Position numbers and translations under genes: made by a program
Shown: positions 14,971 to 63,999 of the stretch, one piece after another
Layout of the letters: each line of letters opens with the position of its first letter
How positions within the stretch are numbered: position 1 is the stretch's first letter
Source of the DNA: Candidatus Marinacidobacterales bacterium
GTDB taxonomy: Bacteria > Acidobacteriota > Vicinamibacteria > Marinacidobacterales > DATDRI01
Length of the DNA: 64,000 bases
Assembly (NCBI GenBank): GCA_965226495.1
Contig: OZ245365.1
Coordinates: 5,440,001-5,504,000, forward strand
Direction of reading: 5' to 3'
The notes under the pieces: model-generated
The model's input: the letters and a program-made list of their open reading frames with translations, nothing else
Told to the model about the DNA's origin: nothing
The model's database searches: none

Positions 14971-15191
14971 CTAGCTCTCCTTAACCCCTCTCGAGACAAA
15001 GTTCTCGGATCCACACAATAGGGGATAGCTCTCCGCCCACTCCGGGGTACCTTCCATAGGCAGGGAAATGCAGGTTCCAAGAATAGGCAAACGCAGGAGC
15101 GTGGCCACCTTTTCCTGGGACAATAGAAGCATATCACGTTCCATAGAGGGGATCCAAATGTTCCCGGTCTAGAACGAGCGTCGGTCCCGGC

Positions 15192-37614: not shown

Positions 37615-37760
37615 CGGGATTCCAGGAGCGCCGGCATCATACCGACCCCCGGGGCCGCATGTCCAGCCCTCTCAGGGGCTTCCGACGACGGACCGCAGCA
37701 TCCTTGAGCGAACGAACCTGGGCGAGAGATACTATGACGGTCCGATTGGTTGGGACACCC

Positions 37761-39832: not shown

Positions 39833-39840
39833 CGATCAAC

Positions 39841-41721: not shown

Positions 41722-41797
41722 ATGGGAGAGGTAAGTCCCTTGGAATGGTTTAACTTGGGCACGGACCCCGATTACTGCCGGTGGAAAGGCGTAAGGC

Positions 41798-43012: not shown

Positions 43013-43045
43013 GGCGATAGGGCTAAGACTTCAGGAGGTAATTCG

Positions 43046-45732: not shown

Positions 45733-46944
45733 CTAGGCTTGCGTGTAACCCAAACGACTCCACGACAACTTCGCCAGTGTCTTCGCACATTCCACGGAAA
45801 GGAGCGCCCATCGATAGGGATAGCAGAGTGGCCACAGCCACTTTCTACGGAGACTGTAGCGCCAGCACAGATACTCCGGGGTTGGCCAGAGGACGGAACG
45901 AGCAAGTTTCAGCCGACGGGGCCAATCGAGCGAACGCATGCGGTGCCAGATCATAGTGCCGCGCGTTTGAACGGATTGCGCTCTGTTTTCTACTGCCGCC
46001 CGCGTCTTGGGGATGCCATCTGCAGACAATGCATCGAGAAAGCCTTCCGGCAAAGGTGTATCGAAAATGTCTTGCGCGCGCAGTAGCGCTCTTCGCAGCG
46101 CCGGAGACCAGCCATACTCACGAGCTCGCACTCTCAATTGATCCCAGTCGAGCTCGTGCTCGCACTTTCTTACCAATAGATGGATGTCATGGACCCAAAG
46201 GAGTCGCCCTTTCGCGCCTCCGTGTTGAAGCATGAGGTGGGCGGCTAGATAGAGAAGATGCGCGGTCGGCCGGAACTGAAGCGCGGAGAGTGGCGGAGAC
46301 TGCCTTCGTTCGTCTTCCAGTTTCCAGGCTTGCGTCTGCCCCCAGAACCAGTCGAGACTCGGCGATCGCCAGTCGCCTTCGCCCCCGATAAGGCGCCAGT
46401 GCAGCTCGACAATGACATAGCCCCGTGGACCACCCTTCAGTGCGACCTCAAAGTGCGTCTCGCGGCAGAGCCCCGGCGTCATCTCTGGAGAGAGATCTCC
46501 GTACCCCAAAAATCGCAGAGCTTCGACCGCCGACTCCAGGTGCTCGCGGGAGAGGAGTATGTCGACATCGGTCATCGGTCTTAGAGCGATCTCGGAATAG
46601 ATGGTTGTGGCAAGAGCCGCGCCCTTTAGAAGGATCAAAGGCGCTCGAGGCACCGCCACTTGCAAAGCGGTAAGAACGCGAGCGAGCTCCCGGTAAATGA
46701 GAAGATTGGATCCACCGGCCTTGAGATACTCTTTCCGAAGCGCCTGGCGTTCCCGCCCTGGTATCGCAAGCGGCCATCCCGTCGATTCCTGGGCGTGGTA
46801 AAGCAGAGGTGCCAGACCTTCGCGCTTGGCGATCTCGGCCCATGCGATCCAATCGGCTTCAGAGAAAGCTGAACAGGAACCGCCGTCCCTTCCGGTGAGC
46901 GCGAGCCCCATGGAGCGCAGGTAAGGCTCGATGTCGGATTTCAT
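45733..46944 (-). CDS. uncharacterised nucleotidyltransferase family protein (type found in lasso/PqqD loci)
   Basis: LLKGAAL...Y....LRPMTDVDILL, ELHW, LLYLAAH..QH, LLWVHDI. Confidence 0.88.
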   Translation of the reverse strand: MKSDIEPYLRSMGLALTGRDGGSCSAFSEADWIAWAEIAKREGLAPLLYHAQESTGWPLAIPGRERQALRKEYLKAGGSNLLIYRELARVLTALQVAVPRAPLILLKGAALATTIYSEIALRPMTDVDILLSREHLESAVEALRFLGYGDLSPEMTPGLCRETHFEVALKGGPRGYVIVELHWRLIGGEGDWRSPSLDWFWGQTQAWKLEDERRQSPPLSALQFRPTAHLLYLAAHLMLQHGGAKGRLLWVHDIHLLVRKCEHELDWDQLRVRAREYGWSPALRRALLRAQDIFDTPLPEGFLDALSADGIPKTRAAVENRAQSVQTRGTMIWHRMRSLDWPRRLKLARSVLWPTPEYLCWRYSLRRKWLWPLCYPYRWALLSVECAKTLAKLSWSRLGYTQA

Positions 46945-49292: not shown

Positions 49293-49549
49293 ACTTTGCC
49301 GCTCAATTTCACAGTCGTTTCACGACTTTTGAAGCTGGATTTTTGTGCTTGTAACGATTCTATCCTCGCGTTCCATGTAAAGTCAAGACGCATCACCAAT
49401 TTACGATGCGAGTTGACTTTTTGTTGCGACGGGCTTTAGACTGGTAAGTAGATCAAGCCAAACAATCGAACGGCGCTTTTTACGTCGCTGGGGAGACCCG
49501 AGCGCTAGTGCTCAACCCTACCGCGATTGCGGTGAGCGGAGTGCAACAC

Positions 49550-50272
49550 ATGACCTCGAAAATCGCGTGGCTCACGGCCGGCTTCTCATTGGCTTTCGCC
49601 TTGTCTCTCTTCCTTTCTCCACCGACTGCCTTTGCACAAGCCGACAACTTGGGTTTCGTGCTCGGCCGTGTCTTCGAAATAGACAAGAAGAAGTACGAGG
49701 AGAAGGAAGCGAAGGACGATAAGGATGACGGCAAAGATGAGGATGCCGAGCCCCCTAAGGCGAAGGACAAAGCTCGAAACGACAAGACGCTGTACTCGTC
49801 GCTCCCGGAGTACCTGGAGCCGTTAAGCGACGTGGAGGTGATGGCCCGGCTCCTCGAGAACAACGAGGAGTTTCTGAGCGAGCCAACGGGCGGCGATGGC
49901 GACTACGTGATCTCGAAAATGTCACCCGGTGTTTTAGAATTCACGCTCCGTCATGAAGACAAGGATTACCCAGTAGAGCAGCGCCTCGGCGCTCAGGTCA
50001 ACCTGGCTTTCGTGGCCGAGCTCTGCTTCGTAGTGGACAAGGAAGAAGAGGTGGCTTGGATGGTCGCGGCCGGTCCGAGGCGATCCCCCGACGTACCCAA
50101 CTGGGTTCCGGAGGTTTGCCAATCACCACTCGGCGCCTGCCTGGGAATGGTTACCGGCAACGACGATTTTAGGGAAGGCCTGGTCCTGATCTTTGCCGGT
50201 GCCGGTGCGGCGGCCACGGCCGTCGGGATCGCGGCCACCCGCGAGAGTGCCGCAAGCCCCGTGGAGCAATAA
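49550..50272 (+). CDS. hypothetical exported protein with a C-terminal hydrophobic helix
   Basis: Signal peptide (AFA-Q), charged linker, C-terminus LVLIFAGAGAAATAVGIAATRESAASPVEQ. Confidence 0.75.
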   Translation: MTSKIAWLTAGFSLAFALSLFLSPPTAFAQADNLGFVLGRVFEIDKKKYEEKEAKDDKDDGKDEDAEPPKAKDKARNDKTLYSSLPEYLEPLSDVEVMARLLENNEEFLSEPTGGDGDYVISKMSPGVLEFTLRHEDKDYPVEQRLGAQVNLAFVAELCFVVDKEEEVAWMVAAGPRRSPDVPNWVPEVCQSPLGACLGMVTGNDDFREGLVLIFAGAGAAATAVGIAATRESAASPVEQ

Positions 50273-50399: not shown

Positions 50400-53300
50400 G
50401 TGCAGGAGGAGCGCCCGAAACCTCTGTCGCGATGGCGGCAGAAGTTGAAACAGATCAGGGTGAACATGGAGCAGGGAAAACAGAGGCATGCAAAACCGCT
50501 AACCGCGATGAAACGGCTCGCCGGTTGGTTAATCCTAAGCCCGAGCCGCTGGCTGGTACTGCTTTCTTTCCCGGCCGTACTGATCTTACTGGTCATGGTT
50601 CGAGCGGATCCTTTCCCTCCGTTCTGGGAGGGCGGCACCGGAACAGCGATTCACTATCAGCCGGTCGTTTGGCCCACGGACGACGGGGACGGAGAGCTCG
50701 ACAACGGGGACTGGACGCCGTACACCATGATCGGCGCCGACATCCAAGATCCTAAGGTTCAAGACCCTTCCAATGGGGGAACCTCGCCGCAAAACTACGT
50801 CAACATCAGCTCTGGTTGCACCGACCTGACACTACCCAGCACGTTCACCTATTTCGACGCGACGAGCCAAGTGCTCATGTTCCGCTGGCGTGTCGAGCAA
50901 ATCGCTCATACTTACGCCACCGGACCGAACGCCGGGACTGCTTCCGCGACCGATCCATGGAAGTCCGGGTTGTGGACCGTGCTCATCGACATCGACGGCG
51001 ATGGTTATCGAGAGTTTGCTATTCATCTCGACGGGTCGAGCGGCTCACCAGGCACCGACATCGATCGAATCGCCAGTATTTACAGCGACACCCCTAATCA
51101 ATCTATCGATTATGTCAACGACTCCAATATCTGCTTGCTCGAGCACAACCCAACCGCCTTCGTCGACGGTCCCACGCCGGACGGCAACACGAATCGTATT
51201 CTGAATTTTCAGAATAGTCTGACACCAACGGCATCATGGCCCAACGGCAACAGCGAGTCGGTCTGGGACTATGGAACGACTCGAGCGGTAGAGGTGGATC
51301 ACGGCACGTGTATCGAGTACTTCGTCGATTACCAGATTCCACTCGCCATGCTCAATGCGACGGCGTCGGCGTGTAACGGACCCCAGGTCACCGAAGACAC
51401 GCCGATAAGTCTCTTGTTCGCGACCGCGAACAGTCTCAACAACCCGTTGCAGAAAGACGTGGTCCTCTTTGGTGACTATATCGGCGACCCCGATGCTCCG
51501 GCCCCTTTCGGCGATCCGATAACACCCGGAGGGGGTCCTCTCCCACAGCCCGTCATCTCCGCGGTCACCGCTGCCAGCTGTGGACCGGCCACGCTTACCG
51601 CAACGGTGACCGACTCGACTCAGGTCAGCGGCGGTTCGGTCGTCGACTCAATCGCCACCGTCGACTTCTATTACTACGCAGACACCAACGCCAACGGTCA
51701 GCCGGACGACGGAAGTTCTTGGACCCCGGCCGCCGGCGCCACGAGCCCGTCATTGGGAACATGGACCGCCAGCTGGGACTCAACAAACTTGGCGCAGGGA
51801 CAGTATCTGATCGGCGTCCGGGCGGAGGATGATCAAGGCAACGTCACGTGGAGTCACCTGACGGCGGCGCAAGCGTCCCCTGATTTTGCCAACCCCACCC
51901 CCGACCCTGGCGTCGTTTTCGCGACGTTCGTCAACACCTGCGGCTCATCGCCCACCGCAAGCAAGGGCGCCAACGCCTCGGCGGTCACCGCCGGAGATCC
52001 GGTGCAGTTCACGATCACCGTGAACGCGAGCCTCGTATCCCCGCTATCGGTGAGCCAAATCGATGACGTGCTCCCGCCGGGATGGATATTCGTGAGCACA
52101 GACGGCGGCACGCTCACCCCGGCGACTTCATCACCAACTGCTGGCCAGACGGGCACCGTCTCCTGGACTTTCGCACCGGCGACCGTGATCGCAGCGGGCG
52201 GAAGCGGGACGATCGTCTTTACCGCCAGCGCTTCAACCGTCGTTGGCACTTACACCAACGTAGCCAACGCGACCACCGATCAAGGCACTGTCGAGACCAA
52301 CCCCGTCGAAGTGGCAGTGGGTGCCCCACAACTCACGATCGCGAAGAGCGCCGACGTCGCTTCCGCCGATCCCGGTGATCCGGTTACCTACACGATCACC
52401 TACTCCAACGATGCCTCGGTCACCGTGACCAATGCGGTCATCACCGATGCCCTACCGCTAGGCCTGACTTTCGTCTCGGCTGCCAACGGCGGAGTTCATG
52501 ATGGAGGGACGCCGGGGACGATTACCTGGAACATCGGTACCATCGCCGCCGGCGATGGTCCTTTTGCGGTGAGTTTCACCGCCACGGTGGACAATCCTTA
52601 TCCGGCTCTCGCCACGGTACCCTTGGTGAATACGGGAACCATCGACTCCGATCAGACGAGTCCCCTCAACGCGGATGCGTCGGTCTTCGTGAACGTCCCC
52701 CGACCCTCGCTCGCCATTCAAAAGGATGGCGACGTCACTCAGGTGCTGCCCGGAAATAACGTCGTCTACACCATCACTTACGTCAATACAGGTAACGCCG
52801 ACGCCACCAGTGTCGTCATCACAGACCCCGTACCCGCTGGCTTCACGTTCGTTTCGGCGACCGGCGGCGGTACTCACGATAGCGGAAGCCCGGGAATCGT
52901 CACCTGGAACGTGGGGACCGTTGCCGCCGGTGGCACGGGCTCGGTGATGCTGACGCTTCAAGCGACCGCCAGCGCCGCCAATCCGACTACGAATACGGCC
53001 ACCATCACCGGAACTGGAATCACTCCTGTTTTCGACGACTACGACGTGGGCATCACGCAGGGTGCTTGTGCCGTCCCCACGACCTACTACTTCAAGAACG
53101 CTACTGCCGACGTCGGATTCGCTGGGACTCGGAACATTGCGAATACGACGGCGCCCACAAGTGCGACTCCGACGGTCACCTCTACCGTCAGCGTCGGTCC
53201 GGCGAGCGCCGGTCGCACCGAGCTCCTTCGTTTCTATCAGGATCCCCCGCAGGGAAGCGCGTTCGATTTCTCGCAGGCGGTCACTGCAACCGTCTACGTG

Positions 53301-56300
53301 GACAAGAGCGGGTCACCACAGGCTATCTTCTGGTTGACCCTGTTCGATTATGATCCGGTCACCGGTACCGAAACCCAGCTCGCCACCGCCAGCACGAGTG
53401 TCCAAGGCAACAAAACGAACGAGCCGGCTGCGTTCAATCTCGGCACCCCTACCCTCACGGTTCCAGAGACCCATCGCTTGCTCTGGGTCGTCGAGGGCAC
53501 CAATGGCCACGGGGGTCAAACCAACGACGTGGCCGTCCGCTACGACGGCACGGGAAGCCCGAGCGCCTCCGACATCTGCACCAGCCCGATCACCCTAACG
53601 CTGGACAAGCAAGTCGATGTGCTCTCGGCTGGGCCCGGCGACACGCTCGTCTACACGCTCAAGTACGCCAACACCGGCCAGGGCAGTGTGACCAATGCGG
53701 TGCTGACCGATACGTTACCCGTCGGCGTTTCCTTCGACTCCGCGTTACCCGTCGCGGCGAATTGCACCGAGTCCCTCGGCGTTGTCACATGTAATTTGGG
53801 CACCGTGGCAGGAGGGACTTCAGGAACGGTGACGATCACCGTCACCGTCAGTCAGCCTCTGGCGGCAGGCATCTTCTCACTCCAGAACGATGCCACCCTC
53901 GACAGCCTCGAGACCGAACCGGTGAACGATTCGGCGACGACGACCATCGTCCGCCCGGTGCTCGGTATCACCAAGTCGGCCGACGACACGCTGCTCATTC
54001 AAGGGGACACCGTTACCTACACGCTGGAGATCACCAATAGCGGGAGTGCTAGCGCTGCGAGCGTATTGGTGAGCGACTCGCTCCCCGTCGATACGTACTT
54101 CTCGTACGTCGGGTCCAGTTGTTCCGTCGACATCTCCCTGGCACCTTCCACGTCGTCGACCACTTGCGGCGAAGCCGCCGGGGTAGTGACGGCCACCGCG
54201 GACGTTCTCGCCGTCGGCGAGACCCTCCGCATCGCCTTTCAAATGACTGTGGGTGCGGGACCGGCACCGGCGGGACTAACCGTAAAGGACAACTTCGCGA
54301 GCGCATCCGACGACAACTCCCCGAGCGTGAGCAGCAATACGGTGACAGTCACCATCAGCACCAATCCCAACTTGCAACTCGCTAAATCGTCGAACCCGGC
54401 GGCGGGTCCGCTGGATCCAGGAGATCCCGTCACCTACACGCTAGTCTTGGGTAACACCGGCTCGACCGCAGCCGATGATGTCTTGGTCGTCGACCCGATC
54501 CCGGCCAACACCAGCTACGTTCTCGGAAGCCTGATCTTTCAAGCCGTAACCCAGACGGATCCGGATGACGTCGATACCGGGCATTTCGACGCGGTGGGGA
54601 ATCGGGCCGTCTTCGATATCGGCTCCTTGGCTGCCGGCGCGTCCCGCACCATGAGCTTCCAGGTCACTGTCGATTCTCCACTACCAAACGGAACAACGCC
54701 CGTTGACAACACGGCGACAGCTACGGCTAGCAACACCGCAACCAAGCAAGCGAGCGCCAACCTCACTGCGAGCGCCGCGCCCAATCTCACTCTTACCAAG
54801 ACGGCACCGGCCACACTCGCCTTCCCGCTCACCATGCTGTCGGCGACCGTGACTGCGTCCGTAACCATCAACGTAGACGATGCCGACTTGATAGGCGTCA
54901 ACGACTACGTGTCCGTCAATGGCACGGGGGCGCGCGTTACCGCCAAGACCGGCAACACTCTGACCTTGGACACCGCGGTTACCGGCAGTGCCGGCGACAA
55001 CGTGAACCCGGTTATCGCGTTCGTGCTGCGTTACGAGAACACTGGAAACGCAAACGCCACCAACGTGTCGGTCACCGATTCACTTCCAACAAATACGGTT
55101 TTCGTCGCGGCGGACAGCGGTGGCACTCACGACGCGGGCTCACCGGGGACGGTCTCTTGGAGCCTGGGAACCGTACCGGCCGGCGGAGCCGGTAGTCTCA
55201 AGTTCTGGGCGCGACCCACCGTCGCCGGAACCTACAACAACAACGGGACCATCGATAGCGACGAAACGTCGCCCACCAACTCCAACACCACGGTGACGAC
55301 CATCGGTGCGCTGCAACCCACCAAGGTAACCAGCACGCCTAGCGTCACCAACCCAGGAGCACAGGCGACCTACACGATCTCCGTCTTCAACGGGACTGGC
55401 TCGCTCGCCACCGCCATCAACATCACCGACGAGATGGAAAAAGGCTTCAGCTTCGCAAGCAACGTCGGCTTCAATATCACCGGCGGAACGGGAGGCTCGC
55501 GGACCAGCACCACCGACCCCACGTCTGGAGACAATCCGGCGACCTGGTGCTGTTGGGATCTATCGGCCGGGGCCACGCTCGACATCCAGTATCTGGCTAA
55601 CCTATCGGACGAGGTCGGCGACGGGACTTACCAGAACAACGTGACCGTGGACTCGCAAAGCTCCAGCCACCTCCTATTCGATTTTCTGGCCACGACCCAG
55701 GAAGACGTGACCGTGAACTGGATCGGGCCGAACCATGTCGTGCTTTCCTGGATAGAGGCCTTCTACGAACAGGGCTTGGTCGTGGTGCAATGGCAAACCG
55801 ACGCCGAGGTGCGCACTTCCGGCTTTTACCTTAAGCGTTACCGACCCGAGACCGATAGGTACGAGGCGGTGCATGAAGATATGCTGCCGAGCGTCGTCGG
55901 ATCCCCTCAGGGCGGCACCTACCGGGTCGTCGATGAGGACGCGCCGCTTGGCGGTCCTCTCTCTTATGTCCTTCTGGAAATCGAGAACAACGGCAAGGAA
56001 AGAAGCTACGGACCGTTTAGCCTCGAAGTGCGCGACCAACCGTCGCTGCACGTATCCACGGCGGGGGGAACAACGAGGCCGGGCTTCCATCGAACGCCCC
56101 GTTCCCGCAGCCCGCGGAATGGACTCAACCGCTCTACCGCGGCTCTCGAAAGCCGCCGTGTCGCAAGGCGAGGAGGAAGCCGCGGCCTGAAGATAGCCGT
56201 CGATGAGTCGGGTCTCTACCGGGTAGAAGTCGCCGAGATCACCGAAGCACTCGGCCTGAAACTGGGCAGGGCGGCGCGGCTTCTACGCAAACATCGGCTG

Positions 56301-58253
56301 CGGCTCTCGGTAGACGGCGCGCGGATTCCATACTTGATTGAGGGCAGAGGCAATACCTCGGCTCTTCTATTCTACGGTGAGGGCTTCGACAGCGTCTATG
56401 CGTCGCACCGCACGTACCGCCTCAGCACCGGCCGCAGCAAGCGCATAGCGTCGGTTTCCGGCTACCCCGACGGGGTGGCGTTCGATCGGCAAACCTTCCG
56501 GGATACGGTTCGCTTCGAGGAGGATCATGTCCCCTTGGTGCTCGGGGAAGTGGACGGGGATTCGGACTTCTGGTTCTGGGACTACGTTATCGCGGGCGAC
56601 ACGCCGAAGATCTTTCCGATCGACGTGCGAGGAGTTGCACCCACCACAACCGAAGCCATCCTTCGTGTTTTCCTGCGTGGTGCCGTTGACACTGGGGCCG
56701 GCGTCCACCAGGTTCGCGTTCTCTTCAACGGCGAGCTCGTAGGACACGCTCTCCTCGAAGGCTTCGACGGCGGCGCGTTCTCTTTCGCCATACCAGCTTT
56801 TCTGCTTCGCGAAGGAGCGAATACCGTCGAGCTCGAAGGCGTGCCCCAACCGGATGTGCCGTACAGTATTGTGTATTGCGACAGTCTCTCGCTCGTGTAT
56901 GAGCGGACGTACCAGGCCCATAACGCCGCTTTGTTAGCGCGTAGCGAGGACAAGGAAGTCCTGAGCATCGGTGGATTCCCGGAACCGGACGTTCGAGTCC
57001 TCGATATCACCGACCCCCTGTTTCCACGAGAGGTTCGAGGAGTCGTGACAGAAGTGGCCCCGCTTGACGGTTATCGGGTGAGGTTTGCGTCAGTGCAGGA
57101 TGCCAAGTACCTGGCGGTCAGTGCGTCCGGTGTTCGGAAACCGGCCTCTCTACGCTGGGACTATCCGTCCCGCCTGCGAAATCGAAAGAACTCCGCCGAT
57201 TACCTGATCATAACCAGCGCCGAGCTCGCGCCTACCGCGAAGCGACTCGCCGCGCACCGCGCGGGGCAGGGACACCGCACCATGACTATCGATCTAGACG
57301 ACATCATGGATGAGTTCAATGCGGGCAACTTCGACCCTCGCGCAATCCGCTCTTTTCTCGCTCACGCTTACGCGCGCTGGCGAAAACCACCGCGCTATGT
57401 CGCGCTGGTCGGCGAAGGCACTTATGACTACAAGGACATCCGAGGGTTCGGTAACAACCATGTGCCTCCACTCATGGTTGGCGGCAGCTGGGGCCTCTAT
57501 GGCGCCGATAATCGGTTGGCCGATCTGGTCGGTGACGACGGCGTCCCCGAGATCGCCATCGGGCGGATCCCGGTGGAAAACGCCGAGCAATTGGAAGCCT
57601 ATATCGATAAGCTCATCGCCTACGAACAAAATGACGACGAGACATGGACGCGGCAAGTCTTGTTGGCCGCCGACAATCCGGACGACACCGGCGATTACCC
57701 AGCCGACAGCGAGGACTATGCAGCGTTGCTCCCCGAAGAGCTGGTGGCAAATCGGGTCTATCTTGGGCAGCTCACCGCCGAGGAGGGCTTCGAGCTGCTC
57801 ATCGCCAACTTGAACGAGGGCGTCTCCTTGATGACCTATCTGGGTCATGCCGGAATCACCCAGCTCTCCAATGAAGCACTCCTTCGCAGTGCCGACGTTC
57901 CCAACCTCACGAACGGGGACCGGCTGCCAGTGATCGCCGTGATGGGCTGCCACCTGGGCAATTTCTGGTTGCCTGGTTATTCTTCACTTGCAGAAGACCT
58001 CGTGCTCCATCCCGACGGTGGCGCGGCAGGGGTTTGGTCACCTGCCGGGCTCTCCTACAATCCTCAACGGCGGATTCTGGGAGAAGCCTATCTCCGGGCG
58101 GTCTATGAAGAAGGAATCGTGATTCTAGGCGATGCGGTCCTGCGCGCCTTGGCCGTTGCCGCGACACAACACGCCAGCGGACGGCGGGAGGTCCTGGAGA
58201 CGCAGGTTCTCTTGGGCGATCCGGCGCTAAGGCTGAAGAGCGACCACCGATGA
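50400..58253 (+). CDS. giant exported protein: ~8 DUF11 repeats plus a C-terminal C25 (gingipain/PorU-like) cysteine peptidase
   Basis: Repeats L.I.K......PGD.V.YTI...N.G....V.I.D.LP; ADYLII, IMDEF, YVALVG...YDYK, IAIGRIP, YLGHAG (His), MGCH (Cys), LLGDPAL; start may be 50466 or 50508. Confidence 0.9.
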   Translation: MQEERPKPLSRWRQKLKQIRVNMEQGKQRHAKPLTAMKRLAGWLILSPSRWLVLLSFPAVLILLVMVRADPFPPFWEGGTGTAIHYQPVVWPTDDGDGELDNGDWTPYTMIGADIQDPKVQDPSNGGTSPQNYVNISSGCTDLTLPSTFTYFDATSQVLMFRWRVEQIAHTYATGPNAGTASATDPWKSGLWTVLIDIDGDGYREFAIHLDGSSGSPGTDIDRIASIYSDTPNQSIDYVNDSNICLLEHNPTAFVDGPTPDGNTNRILNFQNSLTPTASWPNGNSESVWDYGTTRAVEVDHGTCIEYFVDYQIPLAMLNATASACNGPQVTEDTPISLLFATANSLNNPLQKDVVLFGDYIGDPDAPAPFGDPITPGGGPLPQPVISAVTAASCGPATLTATVTDSTQVSGGSVVDSIATVDFYYYADTNANGQPDDGSSWTPAAGATSPSLGTWTASWDSTNLAQGQYLIGVRAEDDQGNVTWSHLTAAQASPDFANPTPDPGVVFATFVNTCGSSPTASKGANASAVTAGDPVQFTITVNASLVSPLSVSQIDDVLPPGWIFVSTDGGTLTPATSSPTAGQTGTVSWTFAPATVIAAGGSGTIVFTASASTVVGTYTNVANATTDQGTVETNPVEVAVGAPQLTIAKSADVASADPGDPVTYTITYSNDASVTVTNAVITDALPLGLTFVSAANGGVHDGGTPGTITWNIGTIAAGDGPFAVSFTATVDNPYPALATVPLVNTGTIDSDQTSPLNADASVFVNVPRPSLAIQKDGDVTQVLPGNNVVYTITYVNTGNADATSVVITDPVPAGFTFVSATGGGTHDSGSPGIVTWNVGTVAAGGTGSVMLTLQATASAANPTTNTATITGTGITPVFDDYDVGITQGACAVPTTYYFKNATADVGFAGTRNIANTTAPTSATPTVTSTVSVGPASAGRTELLRFYQDPPQGSAFDFSQAVTATVYVDKSGSPQAIFWLTLFDYDPVTGTETQLATASTSVQGNKTNEPAAFNLGTPTLTVPETHRLLWVVEGTNGHGGQTNDVAVRYDGTGSPSASDICTSPITLTLDKQVDVLSAGPGDTLVYTLKYANTGQGSVTNAVLTDTLPVGVSFDSALPVAANCTESLGVVTCNLGTVAGGTSGTVTITVTVSQPLAAGIFSLQNDATLDSLETEPVNDSATTTIVRPVLGITKSADDTLLIQGDTVTYTLEITNSGSASAASVLVSDSLPVDTYFSYVGSSCSVDISLAPSTSSTTCGEAAGVVTATADVLAVGETLRIAFQMTVGAGPAPAGLTVKDNFASASDDNSPSVSSNTVTVTISTNPNLQLAKSSNPAAGPLDPGDPVTYTLVLGNTGSTAADDVLVVDPIPANTSYVLGSLIFQAVTQTDPDDVDTGHFDAVGNRAVFDIGSLAAGASRTMSFQVTVDSPLPNGTTPVDNTATATASNTATKQASANLTASAAPNLTLTKTAPATLAFPLTMLSATVTASVTINVDDADLIGVNDYVSVNGTGARVTAKTGNTLTLDTAVTGSAGDNVNPVIAFVLRYENTGNANATNVSVTDSLPTNTVFVAADSGGTHDAGSPGTVSWSLGTVPAGGAGSLKFWARPTVAGTYNNNGTIDSDETSPTNSNTTVTTIGALQPTKVTSTPSVTNPGAQATYTISVFNGTGSLATAINITDEMEKGFSFASNVGFNITGGTGGSRTSTTDPTSGDNPATWCCWDLSAGATLDIQYLANLSDEVGDGTYQNNVTVDSQSSSHLLFDFLATTQEDVTVNWIGPNHVVLSWIEAFYEQGLVVVQWQTDAEVRTSGFYLKRYRPETDRYEAVHEDMLPSVVGSPQGGTYRVVDEDAPLGGPLSYVLLEIENNGKERSYGPFSLEVRDQPSLHVSTAGGTTRPGFHRTPRSRSPRNGLNRSTAALESRRVARRGGSRGLKIAVDESGLYRVEVAEITEALGLKLGRAARLLRKHRLRLSVDGARIPYLIEGRGNTSALLFYGEGFDSVYASHRTYRLSTGRSKRIASVSGYPDGVAFDRQTFRDTVRFEEDHVPLVLGEVDGDSDFWFWDYVIAGDTPKIFPIDVRGVAPTTTEAILRVFLRGAVDTGAGVHQVRVLFNGELVGHALLEGFDGGAFSFAIPAFLLREGANTVELEGVPQPDVPYSIVYCDSLSLVYERTYQAHNAALLARSEDKEVLSIGGFPEPDVRVLDITDPLFPREVRGVVTEVAPLDGYRVRFASVQDAKYLAVSASGVRKPASLRWDYPSRLRNRKNSADYLIITSAELAPTAKRLAAHRAGQGHRTMTIDLDDIMDEFNAGNFDPRAIRSFLAHAYARWRKPPRYVALVGEGTYDYKDIRGFGNNHVPPLMVGGSWGLYGADNRLADLVGDDGVPEIAIGRIPVENAEQLEAYIDKLIAYEQNDDETWTRQVLLAADNPDDTGDYPADSEDYAALLPEELVANRVYLGQLTAEEGFELLIANLNEGVSLMTYLGHAGITQLSNEALLRSADVPNLTNGDRLPVIAVMGCHLGNFWLPGYSSLAEDLVLHPDGGAAGVWSPAGLSYNPQRRILGEAYLRAVYEEGIVILGDAVLRALAVAATQHASGRREVLETQVLLGDPALRLKSDHR

Positions 58254-58314
58254 CGGAAAGTTCTATAATGACTCTTTCCAACAAACTACTCTTAGCAGCG
58301 GGAGAGCAAATGGA

Positions 58315-58494
58315 ATGACGAAACCGGACAAGCCTTCCGAACCTCAACCAGAAGAACATTCCGGCGAGCAGCAAAACAAGAAGAAGCCGTACGAGAAACC
58401 ACGGGTGACTTTTCGGGAACCCCTCGAGGGTGTGGCCTCCATTTGTAATCCTCCCGGCAAAGGCGCCCCACCTTGCGAGTTCGCTTCCTCCTAG
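58315..58494 (+). CDS. putative RiPP precursor peptide (59 aa, missed by the ORF track)
   Basis: MTKPDKPSEPQPEEHSGEQQNKKKPYEKPRVTFREPLEGVASICNPPGKGAPPCEFASS; GGAGAG RBS; TATAAT at 58264-58269; YxxP RRE-recognition motif. Confidence 0.85.
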   Translation: MTKPDKPSEPQPEEHSGEQQNKKKPYEKPRVTFREPLEGVASICNPPGKGAPPCEFASS

Positions 58495-58502
58495 GCGAGG
58501 CC

Positions 58503-58913
58503 ATGAGAGAGGAGATCCTATCCGCCCTTCGGGACTTGGGGAACGAGCAGCGACTGCGCATCCGAGTTCGCGGCTTCTCGATGGCTCCCGATCTTCCGGA
58601 CGGTGCGACCGTCGAAGTGTCCCCCCGAAGAATCTACCTTCCCGGCGACGTGATCGCTTTCCTCGGGCAAAAGGGAGAGCTTCGAGTCCATCGCGTGCTC
58701 GGCTATCGGTGGAGACGCTTGGTGACCAAGGGGGATTACACGAGCTGGATCGATCCCCCAGTGACGCACGATCAAGTGCTCGGCCTGGTGCGAGCTGGCG
58801 ACTGCGCACGCTCTATCTACGAGGTTCCTATCAGCCACCGTTTCCGAGGCGTCGGCTTCTTGTTCCGAAAGCTCGTCACATGGTGCCGCGCTCCATGGGC
58901 GAGAACATCATGA
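58503..58913 (+). CDS. S24/S26-family peptidase (no TM segment; candidate leader peptidase)
   Basis: RVRGFSMAP.L.DG, GDVIAF, VHRV, TKGD; GAGG RBS right after the precursor stop. Confidence 0.85.
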   Translation: MREEILSALRDLGNEQRLRIRVRGFSMAPDLPDGATVEVSPRRIYLPGDVIAFLGQKGELRVHRVLGYRWRRLVTKGDYTSWIDPPVTHDQVLGLVRAGDCARSIYEVPISHRFRGVGFLFRKLVTWCRAPWARTS

Positions 58914-59851
58914 GCTTCGGCGACCACTTCTTGAGCTGCCCCGATCTGTTCCCCGCCCGTCTCGCCGGTGAACCTTGGGGGAAGCGGACGGTGGCGATCG
59001 ACTTCTTGGGAGAGCGATACCGGGTCACCGGGCTCAACCAAGAACAAGCCGACGCAGTTCATGCTCACTTCGGTCCCTACTGTGTGCCCGGCGATTCCAC
59101 AGCTTCACCCGTGGTAGAGATTCGGATTTATCGTGCGGACCAAGAAGACTTCAGAAGCTTCGATCTCCGTGGCTGGGACTACACGCTAGACATGGACTAC
59201 CGGGTTGACTCCGTCCGAGTGGCCGGACTCGATTTCATGGGACTTCTCGAGTGCCGCCATGATCTCGCCGGGGCTATTTGGACGTCGGCTCGAGATGCGG
59301 GCGGCTTCTGCGGGGTGTTCGAGAACTTCCTCCGCGTAACTGCTCAATACCATTTGACCCAGTCCGGCGGTGTCTTGCTACACAGTGCCGCCCTTGTCAT
59401 AGAAGACACTGCCTATCTCTTCCCCGGTCGCTCCGGGGCTGGGAAGTCGACGCTTTGCCATCTGGCGAAGATGCAAGGATGGCGGATCTTGAGCGACGAG
59501 CTCAACGCCGTCTCGATACAAGAGGGTCGCGCAAACGTTCGGCAAGTGCCGTTCGCCGGCGACTTCGGGCAAACGAGTTGCTCGAGCAAGTCGTTTCCTC
59601 TAGCCGCCATCTTCAGGCTGTGCCAGGCGGAGGACGACACCATCCAGTCGATTTCGCCATCGCAATCGCTCGGCTCGATGTTGTCTTGCGCGCCCTTCGT
59701 GAATCTCGACCCTCACCGATGTGAAACAGCCACAACCGTGTTGGAGGAGATCGCCTCGAACCACCCCGGCTTCATACTGAATTTCTCCCTTGGGGGAAAC
59801 TTGAAAACACTCGAGAGGTTCTGCTCTCGCTCGGAGGTACCGACACTATGA
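58910..59851 (+). CDS. HPr kinase-like P-loop protein
   Basis: LLHSAAL, FPGRSGAGKSTL, ILSDE, PFAGD; ATGA overlap with the upstream gene. Confidence 0.85.
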   Translation: MSFGDHFLSCPDLFPARLAGEPWGKRTVAIDFLGERYRVTGLNQEQADAVHAHFGPYCVPGDSTASPVVEIRIYRADQEDFRSFDLRGWDYTLDMDYRVDSVRVAGLDFMGLLECRHDLAGAIWTSARDAGGFCGVFENFLRVTAQYHLTQSGGVLLHSAALVIEDTAYLFPGRSGAGKSTLCHLAKMQGWRILSDELNAVSIQEGRANVRQVPFAGDFGQTSCSSKSFPLAAIFRLCQAEDDTIQSISPSQSLGSMLSCAPFVNLDPHRCETATTVLEEIASNHPGFILNFSLGGNLKTLERFCSRSEVPTL

Positions 59852-60129
59852 GCCACGCCTTGCGCAAGGACGTCCGCTACCGGCTCCTCCTCAACGAAGC
59901 TGTTGTCATTCGACAAGATGCGGCCGAAGTTCTCGGATTGAACCTTGTCGGAGCCCGAGTCCTCGAGCTGATTGACCAGGGGCATGGCCAGAACGTGATC
60001 TTGACGTCACTCGCGGAGGAGTTCGATGTCGCTCCGCGCGAGCTCGAAGCGGATGTGAGCGCTTTCCTGCGAGAGCTCGTGGAACTCGATGTTATCGAGA
60101 GTGTTCAGACCGCGACCGGATCCAACTGA
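59848..60129 (+). CDS. PqqD family / RiPP recognition element (RRE)
   Basis: EAVV......GLNLVGARVLELID....L.EEFDV....LEADV..FL.EL...DVI. Confidence 0.9.
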   Translation: MSHALRKDVRYRLLLNEAVVIRQDAAEVLGLNLVGARVLELIDQGHGQNVILTSLAEEFDVAPRELEADVSAFLRELVELDVIESVQTATGSN

Positions 60130-60130
60130 T

Positions 60131-61195
60131 ATGGGCTACCACGATGTGATGAAGCGGATGGCCGATGAGTACGGCCTGTTGTCGGTCCTCTTGGAGCTCA
60201 CCTACCGTTGCAACCTCGATTGCTTCTTCTGCTACAACGATCTCAACCTCGAGGGGGAGCGACTTTCCACCGAGGACTATCTCCGTCTACTCCAAGACCT
60301 ACGCGACTTACAGGTTATGGTTCTCGTTGTTTCAGGCGGAGAGCCTTTGGCGAGTCCGGCGTTTTGGCCTCTCGGGGTTAGGGCCCGAGAGTTGGGCTTC
60401 GTCACCCGCATCAAATCGAACGGGCACGCCTTGGGAAAAGAAATCGCGCACCGGTTGAAGACCGAGTTGGACCCCTATATCGTCGAAATCAGCCTACACG
60501 GCGCTTGCGCCGAGACCCATGACCGCCAGACTCGGGTCGAAGGAAGCTTCGACAAGCTGACCGCCAACCTAGAAGAGATGCGCCGGGCTGGTTTGCGGGT
60601 CAAGCTCAACAGCACGTTCACCCGCTGGAACGAGAACGAAATCGATAAGATGTTCGCCCTCGCAGACGAAATGGATATTCCGCTTTCTATCGATGCTGTG
60701 GTTACCCCCAGAGACGACGGCGATCGCGAGCCCCTCGCAATCGCCGCCTCGGCCGAAGGCGTGGCGCATCTCTATTCATTGCTCCGAGAGCGAAAAGGGC
60801 AGCCTCCCCAAGAGACGTTCTCGGTTAGCCAGAATGCTCGGAAGAACTGCGGTACCGGCTCCGCGACACTCGCGGTCGATCCCTTTGGAAACGTGTACCC
60901 GTGCATTCAGTGGCGCAGGCCGGTTGGAAACCTACACCGACAATCGGTCAAGGAGATCTGGGGCGGATCCAACAAAGCGCTCGATGAGATCCGGCAATTG
61001 AACACAGAAGCGGGGCGATTGGTGGACAGCTTGGGCCCCGCGGGTCAGGACATGGGATTCTGCCTCGGGCTGGCGGAAGAGCTGACCGGCGATCCTCTCG
61101 CTCTTTATCCCCAGGCCGAGCGAAACCTGCGCGTCCTGCAAGAATTACAGACGAAAACCGAGACGATACGCCTGCCTATTTACGGACAGGACTAA
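60131..61195 (+). CDS. radical SAM protein with a SPASM/Twitch-type C-terminus
   Basis: ELTYRCNLDCFFCYN, SGGEPL, SLHG, CGTG....AVDPFGNVYPC, GNL....KEIW. Confidence 0.93.
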   Translation: MGYHDVMKRMADEYGLLSVLLELTYRCNLDCFFCYNDLNLEGERLSTEDYLRLLQDLRDLQVMVLVVSGGEPLASPAFWPLGVRARELGFVTRIKSNGHALGKEIAHRLKTELDPYIVEISLHGACAETHDRQTRVEGSFDKLTANLEEMRRAGLRVKLNSTFTRWNENEIDKMFALADEMDIPLSIDAVVTPRDDGDREPLAIAASAEGVAHLYSLLRERKGQPPQETFSVSQNARKNCGTGSATLAVDPFGNVYPCIQWRRPVGNLHRQSVKEIWGGSNKALDEIRQLNTEAGRLVDSLGPAGQDMGFCLGLAEELTGDPLALYPQAERNLRVLQELQTKTETIRLPIYGQD

Positions 61196-62822
61196 TTCCT
61201 TTCGGGTCTCGATCGAGCCCGACAACAACTCCCACGATAACACTGAGAAGTGCCGCGTTCGCGGGCAGATGAAGACTGAAATCGGTGAAGCTATGAAGCG
61301 CGATTGCCAACGCCGCCGAGCAATATCCGGCGTGCAAATGGAGTGCGGCACGGTCACCGAGTAGCCTTTGTCGAGTGTGCCAAGCCGCCTTCCAAACGCT
61401 GACTACGAGCCACAAGAAAAGTAGCAGCCCGGGAACGCCGAGCTCTATAAGAAGCTGCAAATAGTCGTTGTGGGTGTGGGTGTAGGAGACAGCCCCTCCA
61501 AAGCTTCGGTAGATGGGGAAGATGTGACCGAAGGTGCCTAAACCCGATCCGGTAAGCCAGAAATCGCTCGTCGCCTGCACGCTGTCCGACCACACTCGCT
61601 GACGCCCCACCTCCGCGTTCCAAAGCTCGGCGACCGCGTCGAAACGCTGAGCCAAGATACCCATTCCAAACCAAATGACGATCCCGGCGACGACGAAAGA
61701 GAAAGCTCGAAGGCTTCGCGCCGCGTAGCGCGCCGGTTCGCCAGCACGAACTTCGATCGGCCCTGCTTCTGGCGATCGCGAGCCGGCCAATACGGTGAAG
61801 AACGCAAGGGCGGCTACCGCCGCGATGATCCCCGACCGGGAGAGCGAAAAGAGGAGCCCCAGGCCAATCACGATGAGCCCGAAGCCCACAACGACGGACT
61901 TGGCTCGCGACTCTTGCCGGACGACATTGGCTAGGCGCGAGAAGCCGCTTCTTCGTGCGTCACCGGCGTCGACACGAGCCATCCGAGCACCAATCCAGCC
62001 GACGCTCACGAGCAAGAGCATTTCCATGCTGGCAGCATAATGGTTGGGGTTGCCAAACGTCCCGCGAGCTCGGAGTCCCACATCCGACGGATCGGCGCCG
62101 AGCAGTTCCTGCAATCCAACAAGCCACTGAGCTACCCCGTAAAGACCAGCCGCGACACCCACTATCAGGAACATCGACGAGAGACGGTCAACGGAGCGGC
62201 GATTCGAAGCCAAGCAAACGCCAACGTAGAAAAGAGCGAGGTAGGCCACCCAAAGGCAAAGTCCGCGCTCGGTTAGAAAGCTAGACAATGTTATGGGTGC
62301 TTCGATCGAAACTTCGTCGTCGAGCATAAGGCCTTGAGCTGCCATCCGGATCTCGCTCGCTCGCGGGGATAGCCGAAGCATCCAACCTTCACTCAGTGGT
62401 AGTAAGGACGCTCCCATCCAAACGGTGAGCAGCAAAAGGGGCATTCCCAAGCTGGCTCGCTTGAATTCGTATCCGGCACAGAAGAAGGAATCGGGGCGCC
62501 TCTCAGGACGACCCGGAAGCAGAATCTCGACTCCCGCTGTACTTCCTCTGGCAGGAAAGAGGCCTAGACTCAACATACGGCTCACGGTAGCTAGGTGCGG
62601 ATACCGAACGGCGAAAGGCAGTTTCCGCGAGGCACGCCGTTCCTCCAAGTTGCGCGCCCTTTCTTCCGGCTTGGTAGACCACAGGACACGCAAGAGAACC
62701 CATGACAAGAGAGAACCCGCCCCGAGCTCAAGGAGGAGGGTAGCCCACGGCGCGTAGCCTCCCCAACCCAGGGTCACACAAACCAGCCATAGCACGATGA
62801 CGTAGGGAAGGTGACGGAGCAT
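61176..62822 (-). CDS. O-antigen ligase (WaaL/Wzy_C) family protein
   Basis: GTFGNPNHYA, SLSRSG, GSGLGTF, HTHNDYLQLLIELG, HSFTDFSLH. Confidence 0.9.
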   Translation of the reverse strand: MLRHLPYVIVLWLVCVTLGWGGYAPWATLLLELGAGSLLSWVLLRVLWSTKPEERARNLEERRASRKLPFAVRYPHLATVSRMLSLGLFPARGSTAGVEILLPGRPERRPDSFFCAGYEFKRASLGMPLLLLTVWMGASLLPLSEGWMLRLSPRASEIRMAAQGLMLDDEVSIEAPITLSSFLTERGLCLWVAYLALFYVGVCLASNRRSVDRLSSMFLIVGVAAGLYGVAQWLVGLQELLGADPSDVGLRARGTFGNPNHYAASMEMLLLVSVGWIGARMARVDAGDARRSGFSRLANVVRQESRAKSVVVGFGLIVIGLGLLFSLSRSGIIAAVAALAFFTVLAGSRSPEAGPIEVRAGEPARYAARSLRAFSFVVAGIVIWFGMGILAQRFDAVAELWNAEVGRQRVWSDSVQATSDFWLTGSGLGTFGHIFPIYRSFGGAVSYTHTHNDYLQLLIELGVPGLLLFLWLVVSVWKAAWHTRQRLLGDRAALHLHAGYCSAALAIALHSFTDFSLHLPANAALLSVIVGVVVGLDRDPKGISPVRK

Positions 62823-62838: not shown

Positions 62839-63999
62839 TTACGAACCTTCTGCAGATGGCTTGTTCAGAAGCAAGAGTTGTCTAAGCTCTCCATCGGCTT
62901 GGGAATGTTGCGGATGGAGCCGCAGGACTTCCCGGTAGGCCTCAATCGAGGCACGCCGTTTCCCGGCCTTGCGGTACACACGGGCCAAGCCAAGCCGTGA
63001 GTCGGGATCGTTGGGAGCAGCTTCGGTGGCCTTCAGCAAGAGGCTCTCTGCCATAACCACCTGGTCCGCCCTCAGATACTGGTAGCCCATGCCTCTCAAA
63101 AGCTCCACGCTAGCCGAAGACGATGCGCCGGCATGACGCTCTACCTTCTTTAACGCTTCGCTAAAGGCCTCATACGCTCTCTCCGGCTGACCTAGCTCGA
63201 GATGAGCCCTCGCTACCACCAAGGCGGCGCGAGCAAAATCTCTCCCCGCGCGCCCCGAGCGATCCTCCTGCTCGAGCCACTCCTGCCCCGTTCGAAGCGC
63301 GATTGCGGGCGCGTTCCATTCGAAGGCCCATCGTGCCGCGTCGAAGAAAAATTCTCTCTCCGAGGCCGATTCGAGAACCCCGGCGAGAACGTCCAGGGCT
63401 TCGGTTCTGTGCGACGACCTGGCGAGGGCTAGGGCGAGCTCTTTTCTTGCCGGAACGGTCTCGGGTGTCAGGTCGCGCCACTTGTCCGCCGGCACGCCGC
63501 TCCAAGCGACGAGCTTCAACGAGGCGGGGACGAGGTCGGGCTCTAGCTTCATCGCCAACGCCAGATGACCCAGCCCGCGACGGCGAGCATCACCGAACTC
63601 GTCCGACCTTCGCGACGCCACCTTTTCTATTCGAAGCGGCTCGACCCTAGGTGTAAGCAACCATTGCGCGTACGCGAAACGAAGACGTCCATTAGAAGGA
63701 GAAAGCTCGATGGTCGCTTCGAAGGCCCGCTCGGTGAGCTCGCGTTCTTCCAGTCGATTTGCCAAAAAAGCAGCAAGTAGAAATGGCGACTGATAGGAGG
63801 CGGGAGCCTCTTTCAACGATTGGCGAAGATAGGGCAGAATGCTACCAGAGAAGTTCTTGGACTCGATGGCGTGACGAGTGAGGCCCAATGTTGCTTCGGG
63901 ATGTCGCAGCCGTGGGCTCGACTCGAGCTCGATCTCACTGGGAAAGCGCGCCCAGCTCTCTTGCTCATAGAAGAAGAACGAGGCCCCTGCATAAGCGCC
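62839..63999 (-). CDS. tetratricopeptide repeat protein (5' end outside window)
   Basis: Frame stays open to the window end; TPR-like helices (AP.D...RLGLARVY...G....A...Y..VL.L.P). Confidence 0.75.
   Translation of the reverse strand, partial: GAYAGASFFFYEQESWARFPSEIELESSPRLRHPEATLGLTRHAIESKNFSGSILPYLRQSLKEAPASYQSPFLLAAFLANRLEERELTERAFEATIELSPSNGRLRFAYAQWLLTPRVEPLRIEKVASRRSDEFGDARRRGLGHLALAMKLEPDLVPASLKLVAWSGVPADKWRDLTPETVPARKELALALARSSHRTEALDVLAGVLESASEREFFFDAARWAFEWNAPAIALRTGQEWLEQEDRSGRAGRDFARAALVVARAHLELGQPERAYEAFSEALKKVERHAGASSSASVELLRGMGYQYLRADQVVMAESLLLKATEAAPNDPDSRLGLARVYRKAGKRRASIEAYREVLRLHPQHSQADGELRQLLLLNKPSAEGS

Follow-up and report, generated by a model that had tools for sequence, protein, structure and literature searches.

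What is made by five closely packed genes that encode a 59-residue peptide, a signal-peptidase homologue, a kinase, a PqqD-type protein and a radical S-adenosylmethionine (SAM) enzyme, directly behind a giant C25 peptidase gene? The genes occupy positions 58315 to 61195 of a stretch of 64,000 nucleotides (the window) from Candidatus Marinacidobacterales bacterium (Acidobacteriota; GenBank assembly GCA_965226495.1, contig OZ245365.1, positions 5,440,001 to 5,504,000 of the forward strand). A model that saw the sequence alone had proposed that they form a cassette for a peptide synthesized by the ribosome and modified after translation (RiPP) of an uncharacterised class (the original prediction). 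The cassette is a real, conserved peptide-maturation set and not a chance juxtaposition; its genes recur together in many unrelated genomes, and this part of the proposal stands.

It is probably a RiPP maturation cassette on a chassis of the linear polyphosphorylated peptide (LPP)/paeninodin type joined to a radical SAM enzyme, working in the order of events proposed below. The claim to an uncharacterised class went too far: the peptidase, the RiPP recognition element (RRE), the kinase and the NTP_transf_5 enzyme match those of a described pathway, LPP of Bacillota (LppA/K/B/S/D/N; Popov et al., Nat Commun 2026, PMC13381572). The cassette is a variant on this chassis described in 2026, and not a categorically new kind. 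New are the radical SAM enzyme, a core with two Cys, a Lys and a Ser end, the missing exporter, and the association with a giant protein that has a PorU-like C25 domain.

Gene content and organization

The original prediction had placed the five genes correctly in position and flanks. The features on which the argument rests are listed here by position in the window.

45733-46944, minus strand: PF14907 (NTP_transf_5) nucleotidyltransferase (Pfam, E-value 8.4e-46)
46971-49292, minus strand: Wzc-type polysaccharide co-polymerase/tyrosine autokinase (Pfam Wzz and AAA_31; TIGR01007 161.9 bits, cut-off 108)
50400-58253, plus strand: giant DUF11/C25 gene, 2617 amino acids, with eight DUF11 domains and a terminal Peptidase_C25 domain (Pfam, E-value 1.9e-81)
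58315-58494, plus strand: precursor peptide gene, an open reading frame (ORF) of 59 amino acids with a GGGAGAG ribosome-binding site 8 nucleotides upstream
58503-58913, plus strand: S24/S26-like peptidase gene, a soluble signal-peptidase homologue of the endoplasmic reticulum (ER)/archaeal type (S26B-like), predicted leader peptidase
58910-59851, plus strand: P-loop kinase gene of the HprK/phosphoenolpyruvate carboxykinase (PEPCK) fold, with an ATGA stop/start overlap with the peptidase gene; predicted peptide Ser kinase
59848-60129, plus strand: discrete PqqD-type RRE gene, with an ATGA overlap with the kinase gene and a GGAGG site upstream
60089 or likelier 60131 to 61195, plus strand: radical SAM gene with a partial SPASM (twitch-like) domain, predicted modifier of the Cys-containing core

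The radical SAM gene likely begins at 60131: in the longer form, with its start at 60089, the alignment to relatives does not set in before residue 15-17. For the peptidase gene an alternative TTG start exists at 58473. The NTP_transf_5 gene lies 12 kb upstream of the cassette and adjoins the Wzc gene. A lasso cyclase (Asn-synthase type), a Transglut_core3 (B2) protease and an ATP-binding cassette (ABC) exporter were all absent from Pfam scans of the large ORFs of the window, in agreement with what had been predicted.

Precursor peptide

The leader of the 59-residue peptide contains a basic patch followed by Y26-x-x-P29-x-V31, and E35, E38 and A41 are conserved. The predicted core spans residues 42-59 and includes Cys44, Lys49, Cys54 and the C-terminal Ser59. 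The original prediction had staked itself on a conserved small ORF at homologous loci, and such ORFs were found in relatives. The 35 non-redundant homologues follow a common plan: a basic patch, the motif [YW]xxPx[IV]L, the pattern R-E-x-L-E-x-x-A, a Cys, a Pro-rich stretch with a Lys, another Cys and a short tail with a Ser end, the last being present in 34 of the 35.

A profile built from 28 homologues and searched against 1.84 billion representatives matched 867 clusters at E ≤ 1e-3 (146 at E ≤ 1e-10). The best 150 of the 867 include 147 short proteins (up to 130 residues), all of which carry the [YWF]xxP leader motif with Y (135), W (11) or F (1) as the first residue; 144 of these short proteins are Ser-terminal and 143 have exactly two Cys after the motif. 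Of the 147 short proteins, 146 contain at least two Cys; in 143 of them the first and second Cys have a Lys between them, and the Cys-bracketed loop measures 9-13 residues in most and is Pro-rich in the consensus. Compared with a same-genus genome the peptide gene has 9 synonymous and 5 non-synonymous codon differences, with all 5 located before residue 29, and as judged from sequence comparison the selection on the gene is purifying.

Three long proteins (P0024, P0072 and P0143) end in the peptide sequence. In one of them a Cys-Gly-rich hydrophobic tail and a basic cluster stand just before the peptide, which suggests a gene-calling read-through from an upstream surface protein.

Recurrence in other genomes

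The kinase was used to search 41 genomes of the order to which the window belongs, and matches were obtained in 18, full-length in 12. The tallies for the order and for the phylum take in the unpublished genomes G007 and G192, and no individual claim depends on either. A same-genus genome has the peptide, peptidase, kinase, PqqD, radical SAM, Wzy_C and TPR genes in identical order. In the sister family the Wzc, nucleotidyltransferase, kinase, PqqD and radical SAM genes form one co-oriented block in all seven loci, each time with the NTP_transf_5 gene directly between Wzc and kinase, and a small peptide gene is located just downstream on the opposite strand in six of the seven. The Wzc of the window is about 51% identical to the one heading the sister-family cassette.

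A scan of public species genomes with the kinase alignment delivered 299 confirmed relatives, of which the best 80 were retained. The 33 closest of these 80 loci, many of them cut by contig ends, contain the kinase (33), radical SAM (30), peptide (28), PqqD (28), C25 (22) and peptidase (19) genes, and by tblastn the nucleotidyltransferase (5), Wzc (5) and Wzy_C (1) genes; L032, L047 and L048 among the 33 lie on contigs equal in length to those of loci listed under G handles, with matching coordinates, and look like duplicates of them. The carriers are metagenome-assembled genomes (MAGs) labelled Thermoanaerobaculia, Holophagales, 'Marinacidobacterales', other Acidobacteriota, Sedimenticola, Thiolapillus, Chromatiaceae, Competibacteraceae, Myxococcota and Desulfobulbus. 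In a sample of the phylum, a kinase match at E ≤ 1e-30 was present in 55 of 301 genomes and 37 of 186 genera.

Two layouts were observed. Layout A runs C25, peptide, peptidase, kinase, PqqD, radical SAM; layout B runs Wzc, nucleotidyltransferase, kinase, PqqD, radical SAM, peptide. The window unites both, with the Wzc/nucleotidyltransferase pair divergent from the C25-cassette block. The synteny expected by the original prediction (C25, YxxP peptide, S26, HprK, PqqD, nucleotidyltransferase, Wzc) thus recurs, but as two layouts which the window combines. Radical SAM and PqqD genes stand side by side in almost all loci holding both, and abut or overlap in the window. The wider context is variable: locus L042, from a Sedimenticola MAG, lies among housekeeping genes and other loci lie among polysaccharide genes. 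No ABC exporter was conserved among the nine related loci scanned with Pfam, the only trace being a fragment at the edge of L045.

In a distant branch, with Nitrospirae/Nitrospira, Thermodesulfovibrionales and Acidoferrales among the labels of its MAGs, the genes are arranged as C25, PqqD, radical SAM, peptide, kinase, peptidase. Its peptides mostly have three Cys, and a YxxP-type leader together with a Gly-Ser end was found in 10 of the 14 loci checked (L054, L062, L064, L065, L066, L068, L072, L080, L090 and L100), the peptide gene being located between the radical SAM and kinase genes.

The same-genus genome G002 (L013:8037-9036) keeps the five cassette genes and lacks about 12 kb relative to the window, namely the rest of an amidohydrolase gene, the nucleotidyltransferase, Wzc, a 254-residue ORF and most of C25; the amidohydrolase fragment abuts the last 117 codons of the C25 gene. 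Its radical SAM and Wzy_C genes align as two pieces each, possibly owing to frameshifts or assembly errors.

The window's genome contains a second, divergent pair of HprK-like and radical SAM/SPASM genes (L101:9812-12230, equal to G000:C1 at about 3.474 Mb), adjoining TPR proteins, a pilin-like N_methyl protein and a sigma-54 activator. Neither tblastn nor Pfam detected PqqD, S24 or C25 genes at this pair.

Maturation enzymes and complex model

The PqqD protein matches PF05402 (E-value 1.8e-12). Its profile retrieves from the PDB the lasso RRE TbiB1 (3.1e-18), then LppB (9x8z chain B, 1.2e-11), TfuB1 and 9x90 chain B; 9x8z is LppB with its leader and 9x90 is PbaB1 with its leader (PMC13381572). 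Asp69 is the sole invariant column in an alignment of 28 sequences, and in the alignment of hidden Markov models (HMMs) it pairs with the Asp of LppB four residues before a conserved Phe. This spacing fits D70 and F74 of LppB, which hydrogen-bond the leader Tyr-16 and pack on Pro-13, respectively (PMC13381572).

The peptidase scores only 5e-4 with Peptidase_S24, below the Pfam cut-off. Its profile against the PDB ranks SEC11A (1.2e-9) and SEC11C ahead of bacterial SpsB and LexA, and its structural model, with a predicted local distance difference test (pLDDT) of 90.7, has SEC11C as the top Foldseek match. The protein has no N-terminal membrane anchor and begins with a helix, as described for LppS. 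Residues G24, M27, P29, G48, H63, R64 and D78 are invariant in the alignment and D84 is nearly so; candidate catalytic residues are Ser26, His63 and Asp78/Asp84. Of 32 sequences, 20 have a Ser at position 26 and the other 12 a Cys, a swap compatible with a catalytic nucleophile.

A joint model of peptidase, RRE and peptide, for which each chain was given a separate alignment, scored 0.77 against 0.51 for the best control, and passed a mark that 116 of 157 solved complexes attain, as do 2 of 215 mismatched pairs. At least 85% of the contacts are common to the three runs, with a partner pLDDT of at least 59. Peptide residues 22-42 contact RRE residues 26-35, 57-61, 69, 70 and 73 in the model, Pro29 being set against 69, 70 and 73 and peptide residues 26-35 being those touched by the RRE, and the peptide also contacts peptidase residues 18-28 and 59-63, including Ser26 and His63. 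By this model the RRE is predicted to bind the leader.

The kinase has no match in the Pfam copy used, a copy that lacks PF27840, and its NCBIfam matches TIGR04352 (1.2e-12) and ScmC (2.5e-9) are both far below the cut-offs. The motifs GxSGAGKST (P-loop) and SD[DE]LN are invariant. Because the profile match to HprK/P is weak, a fold search was needed to place the protein: with its model (pLDDT 92.0) as the query, Foldseek retrieved ATP-dependent PEPCK (1.4e-7) as well as the catalytic domains of HprK/P (1.4e-5). By its modelled structure it has the HprK/PEPCK fold and is a predicted peptide Ser kinase. It matched 616 clusters at E ≤ 1e-10; of the 120 homologues listed, all those with a name are called 'hypothetical protein', and nearly all carry a precomputed PF27840 assignment. 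One protein of 403 amino acids (P0164) holds PF27840 and PqqD together and may be a natural fusion or a read-through.

The radical SAM enzyme matches PF04055 (9e-17) and PF13186 (SPASM, 7.9e-8). Its CxxxCxxC motif consists of C41, C45 and C48, and the only further Cys invariant in 27 sequences are C254, C272 and C325. A full SPASM domain is characterized by a seven-Cys motif; with only three invariant Cys beyond the SAM cluster the domain appears to be of the partial SPASM, twitch-like type. Relatives in the PDB are BlsE, PqqE and SkfB (5.1e-10), and relatives at the HMM level are the sactipeptide maturases StsB (4.2e-26) and AlbA (6.1e-12) as well as MftC and PqqE.

Comparison with known systems

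In the LPP pathway, LppS is a SipW-type soluble peptidase (S29/H68/D93) that depends on the RRE, and the HprK-like LppK places several phosphates onto Ser3 of the core; the set also contains the discrete RRE LppB, the NTP transferase LppN and an MsbA-like pump (PMC13381572). The precursors have the motif YxxPxVLxHQxIxFETxxS and are cleaved after T-1, and LPP clusters are often located in capsule loci, where paeninodin clusters occur as well (PMC13381572). Both are termed Bacillota-restricted in the text of that paper, whereas its supplement 1 lists peptidase homologues from Acidobacteriota and Myxococcota, one Acidobacteria row being assigned to a different similarity cluster, number 3, with an 'RRE others' entry; the main text does not take these homologues up (PMC13381572). 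The supplementary neighbourhood table lists NTP_transf_5 140 times around LPP peptidases, which places LppN in the same Pfam family as the enzyme of the window (PMC13381572). A term search of the main text gave no mention of radical SAM, SPASM, C25 or Acidobacteria (PMC13381572).

The LPP numbering Tyr -16, Pro -13, Val -11 and Leu -10 corresponds to Y26, P29, V31 and T32 of the window peptide, the last being Leu in the family consensus. In this register -1 falls on the invariant Ala41 and core position 3 on the likewise invariant Cys44, and cleavage is therefore predicted between Ala41 and Ser42; a small residue at -1 and a mostly small one at -3 suit a type I signal peptidase. Shared with LPP are a soluble S26 peptidase of the ER/archaeal type whose triad is Ser-His-Asp; a discrete RRE of the lasso type, in which an Asp binds the Tyr (binding modelled); an HprK-like kinase (recognized by motifs and fold, activity predicted); the NTP_transf_5 enzyme, recognized by PF14907; a YxxPx[VI]L leader with a predicted cleavage site 16 residues past the Tyr; and a setting in polysaccharide loci. 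The leader differs in having RE..LE..A where LPP has HQ and FET. The core is conserved, with two invariant Cys, a Lys and a Ser end, whereas LPP cores are variable and linear, and its residue 3 is Cys instead of phospho-Ser. Furthermore, an MsbA-like exporter is absent from the large ORFs of the window, and the cassette adds the radical SAM/partial-SPASM enzyme, the coupling to a giant C25 protein and an occurrence in Gram-negative phyla.

The nearest precedent for a modified terminal Ser is pseudomycoidin, in whose biosynthesis PsmK phosphorylates the C-terminal Ser and PsmN is needed for the hexose on that phosphate (PMC6993621). The cassette resembles the paeninodin/pseudomycoidin systems in its HprK-like kinase with a Ser-ending precursor, its nucleotidyltransferase, the [Y/W]xxP leader and the discrete PqqD RRE (PMC6993621), and differs from them in having an S26-type peptidase and a radical SAM enzyme and no lasso cyclase or B2 cysteine protease. 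A lasso peptide was rejected as the product, with cyclase and B2 protease domains absent from Pfam scans of the window and nine related loci.

The sactipeptide/ranthipeptide maturases SkfB, AlbA and StsB, radical SAM/SPASM enzymes of the thioether kind, likewise go together with an RRE of the PqqD type and a precursor that contains Cys. The cassette enzyme, however, scores far below their cut-offs, has only three conserved auxiliary Cys and is accompanied by an RRE that is discrete and not fused; the kinase, S26 peptidase and nucleotidyltransferase are foreign to those pathways.

The SynChlorMet systems (ScmC/D/E/F) and the TIGR04352/TIGR04353 systems, also biochemically uncharacterised, share the HprK-like P-loop protein, PqqD and radical SAM/SPASM enzyme. 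The original prediction had called SynChlorMet related; these three kinds of protein are common to both, but the cassette forms a different branch and is not a member, since all Scm models remain far below their cut-offs: ScmC 36.9 against 125 bits, ScmD 24 against 100, ScmE 75 against 400 and ScmF 56.3 against 400. Membership in the HprK-related kinase A system was rejected as well (TIGR04352 47.6 against 200 bits, TIGR04353 22.8 against 35).

Full-text literature searches found no paper on a radical SAM-bearing version of the cassette, and for PF14907 turned up only a phosphonate paper. The terms HPr, signal peptidase, C25, S26, nucleotidyltransferase and Acidobacter gave no hit in a term search of the 2025 RRE survey (PMC12710340).

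With 867 peptide clusters and 616 kinase clusters the family is large and extends over several phyla of mostly uncultured bacteria. The cassette takes the LPP chassis beyond Bacillota and joins it to radical SAM chemistry, and its coupling to a PorU-like giant protease and Wzc-type genes offers a handle on the role of phosphopeptides of the LPP/paeninodin kind and on their capsule-locus setting.

Proposed maturation pathway

From the gene content, conservation, catalytic motifs, folds and complex model described above we infer the chemical steps, the cleavage site, the phosphosite and the final role as follows. The discrete PqqD RRE would grip the 59-residue precursor by the YxxPxV motif of the leader and offer it to the radical SAM/partial-SPASM enzyme, which would modify the core. 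The change is most likely a cross-link of the thioether type involving the invariant Cys44 and Cys54 that flank Lys49. The HprK/PEPCK-fold kinase would phosphorylate the C-terminal Ser59, in the manner of the paeninodin/pseudomycoidin kinases rather than of LppK, which acts on core residue 3. The S26B-type Ser(Cys)-His-Asp peptidase would then cut off the leader after Ala41, in the LppA register 16 residues past the Tyr. Where an NTP_transf_5 enzyme is present, as in the window, it may elaborate the phosphate. The product would have its role at the envelope of the cell, alongside the PorU-like C25 giant, the polysaccharide machinery of the Wzc type, or both. The pathway makes sharp predictions: the RRE contacts, a leader cut just past Ala41, a phosphorylated Ser59 and a cross-link of Cys44/Cys54.

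Several points weigh against this pathway, in which we infer every chemical step. None of the curated kinase models scores the kinase above its cut-off, and the sequence match of the kinase to solved HprK/P has an E-value of 0.35. The radical SAM enzyme, with no more than three Cys conserved outside the SAM cluster, does not look like a full SPASM maturase, and the best NCBIfam matches to it are heme d1/heme enzymes, over the N-terminal half only. The phosphosite in LPP is core residue 3 and not the C-terminus, and the cassette has a Cys there (PMC13381572). The best control of the complex model, in which the peptidase was replaced and peptide and RRE were kept, reached as much as 0.51; the RRE-leader pair therefore accounts for most of the signal, and the pass may reflect mere likeness to solved RRE-leader complexes (9x8z, 5v1u). 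No exporter was found in or near the cassette, so that the pathway does not account for the fate of the product or its exit from the cytoplasm. Finally, the nucleotidyltransferase and Wzc were found by tblastn in only 5 of the 33 related loci and the peptidase in 19, many of these loci being cut by contig ends.

Giant C25 protein and alternative explanations

The link to C25 is the most striking feature that the proposed mechanism leaves unexplained. PorU is the C25-family sortase of type IX secretion. About 600 C-terminal residues of the giant protein match the NCBIfam PorU sortase model (NF033707; 1.2e-64, 218.6 bits against a cut-off of 420), and the C25 residues His2483 and Cys2517 are invariant in 32 of 32 sequences. 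The giant protein thus resembles PorU in its C-terminal match and its conserved catalytic His and Cys, and differs in scoring below the cut-off and in carrying the domain at the end of a repeat protein of 2617 residues. It is predicted to be membrane-anchored or secreted, and extracytoplasmic. The C25 gene is present at 22 of the 33 related loci, in several phyla, and the peptide gene often directly abuts it. Of the order's 41 genomes, 10 have both the cassette and a full-length C25 orthologue and 26 have neither; C25 alone is found in three (G004, G005 and G018) and the cassette alone in two (G002, with a C25 remnant, and G014). This co-occurrence is a hint only, because the compared genomes are kin. 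The window's genome has 18 C25 matches and a single cassette of this family, next to the copy in the window.

These observations bear on an explanation that could share the maturation steps proposed above and departs from them in end use alone: rather than being a free natural product, the matured peptide would serve the PorU-like C25 transpeptidase and the polysaccharide machinery as substrate or acceptor, and would form a bridge or anchor between the giant protein and exopolysaccharide. We consider this unlikely. It would suit the C25 gene beside the cassette in the 22 loci, the invariant catalytic His and Cys with the type IX sortase as the best curated match, the joint occurrence or absence in the order, the lack of an encoded exporter, the Wzc and nucleotidyltransferase genes joined to the cassette in the sister family, and the position of LPP and paeninodin clusters in capsule loci (PMC13381572). 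On the other side, the co-occurrence count is weakened by kinship, there are many C25 giants but one cassette per genome, as in the window's own, the PorU cut-off is failed, the linkage chemistry is not readable from sequence, and the Pfam-scanned Sedimenticola-type locus L042 has no polysaccharide genes nearby. A more specific form, which we hold to be less likely still, makes the leader-free N-terminus the acceptor for the PorU-type C25 transpeptidase and the phospho-Ser C-terminus the start or attachment site of polysaccharide for NTP_transf_5 and Wzc/Wzy. If true, a cross-linked phosphopeptide would covalently bridge surface protein and exopolysaccharide, and this would explain the capsule-locus setting of LPP and paeninodin clusters.

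The C25 gingipains include Lys-specific enzymes, and the peptide could serve specifically to inhibit or regulate the C25 protease encoded next to it, with the Pro-rich loop between the two Cys presenting the conserved Lys to the active site. The near-constant Lys between two Cys (143 of the 146 peptides among the best 150), the loop of mostly 9-13 residues and the frequent abutment of peptide and C25 genes are in line with this, but the predicted extracytoplasmic location of the giant is at odds with soluble maturation enzymes and the lack of an encoded exporter, the kinase and the invariant C-terminal Ser are left unaccounted for, and sister-family cassettes lack an adjacent C25 gene; we regard an inhibitor as very improbable. 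Similarly small is the chance that the product is a linear LPP-type phosphopeptide and that the radical SAM enzyme acts elsewhere, where it might modify a sugar or nucleotide of a neighbouring envelope pathway. The sugar-nucleotide decarboxylase BlsE as the closest solved relative by sequence, the partial SPASM domain and the lack of a fused RRE would fit such a role. However, the radical SAM and PqqD genes abut or overlap and are adjacent in almost all loci holding both, the two core Cys are near-invariant and would be needless in a purely linear phosphopeptide, and the distant branch retains the radical SAM gene alongside a three-Cys peptide. That unrelated genes met by chance around a spurious small ORF is already contradicted and has hardly any probability left: the Pfam and NCBIfam matches of peptidase and kinase are individually weak, but the synteny is kept across phyla, 867 peptide clusters have the same architecture, the peptide gene is under purifying selection, and stop and start codons overlap between the genes.

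Further giant ORFs ending in C25 occur in the window's genome (G000:C1:600869-667781 and 222766-240461), with frames of up to 6188 amino acids, and several of them cluster near 0.60-0.67 Mb. In a Thermoanaerobaculia MAG two different C25-terminated giants (L022:2377-7671 and 10575-15221) stand one on each side of the cassette.

Flanking genes and further observations

The remaining neighbours of the cassette are the following.

49508-50272, between Wzc and the C25 giant: ORF of 254 amino acids, not counted as part of the system
61176-62822, minus strand: Wzy_C (O-antigen ligase/polymerase-like) membrane protein (PF04932, 2.1e-20), convergent with the radical SAM gene
62839-63888, minus strand: TPR-repeat protein (Pfam TPR families), kept in the same-genus locus

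The 254-residue ORF gave no Pfam or NCBIfam match and no tblastn match in 80 related loci. It is uncertain whether the Wzy_C gene is a member of the system; it adjoins the cassette in the same-genus genome only and was seen in 1 of the 33 other loci. Membership of the TPR gene is likewise uncertain.

Promoter-like sites number 5 (2.9 ± 1.8 in shuffles) and terminator-like sites 15 (13.1 ± 3.5), and neither count is informative; two of the promoter-like sites stand back to back in the intergenic region between Wzc and the 254-residue ORF. A metatranscriptome library contained a single contig of 210 nucleotides at 59872-60081 with 100% identity, which is too little to claim transcription, and DNA carry-over is possible.

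At 37659-43843 the window contains a co-oriented run of genes for a Peptidase_Mx (putative Zn metallopeptidase), an ATP-grasp protein like D-Ala-D-Ala ligase, an S15 X-Pro dipeptidyl peptidase, a cytochrome P450 and an alpha/beta hydrolase, which might be a separate small-peptide pathway.

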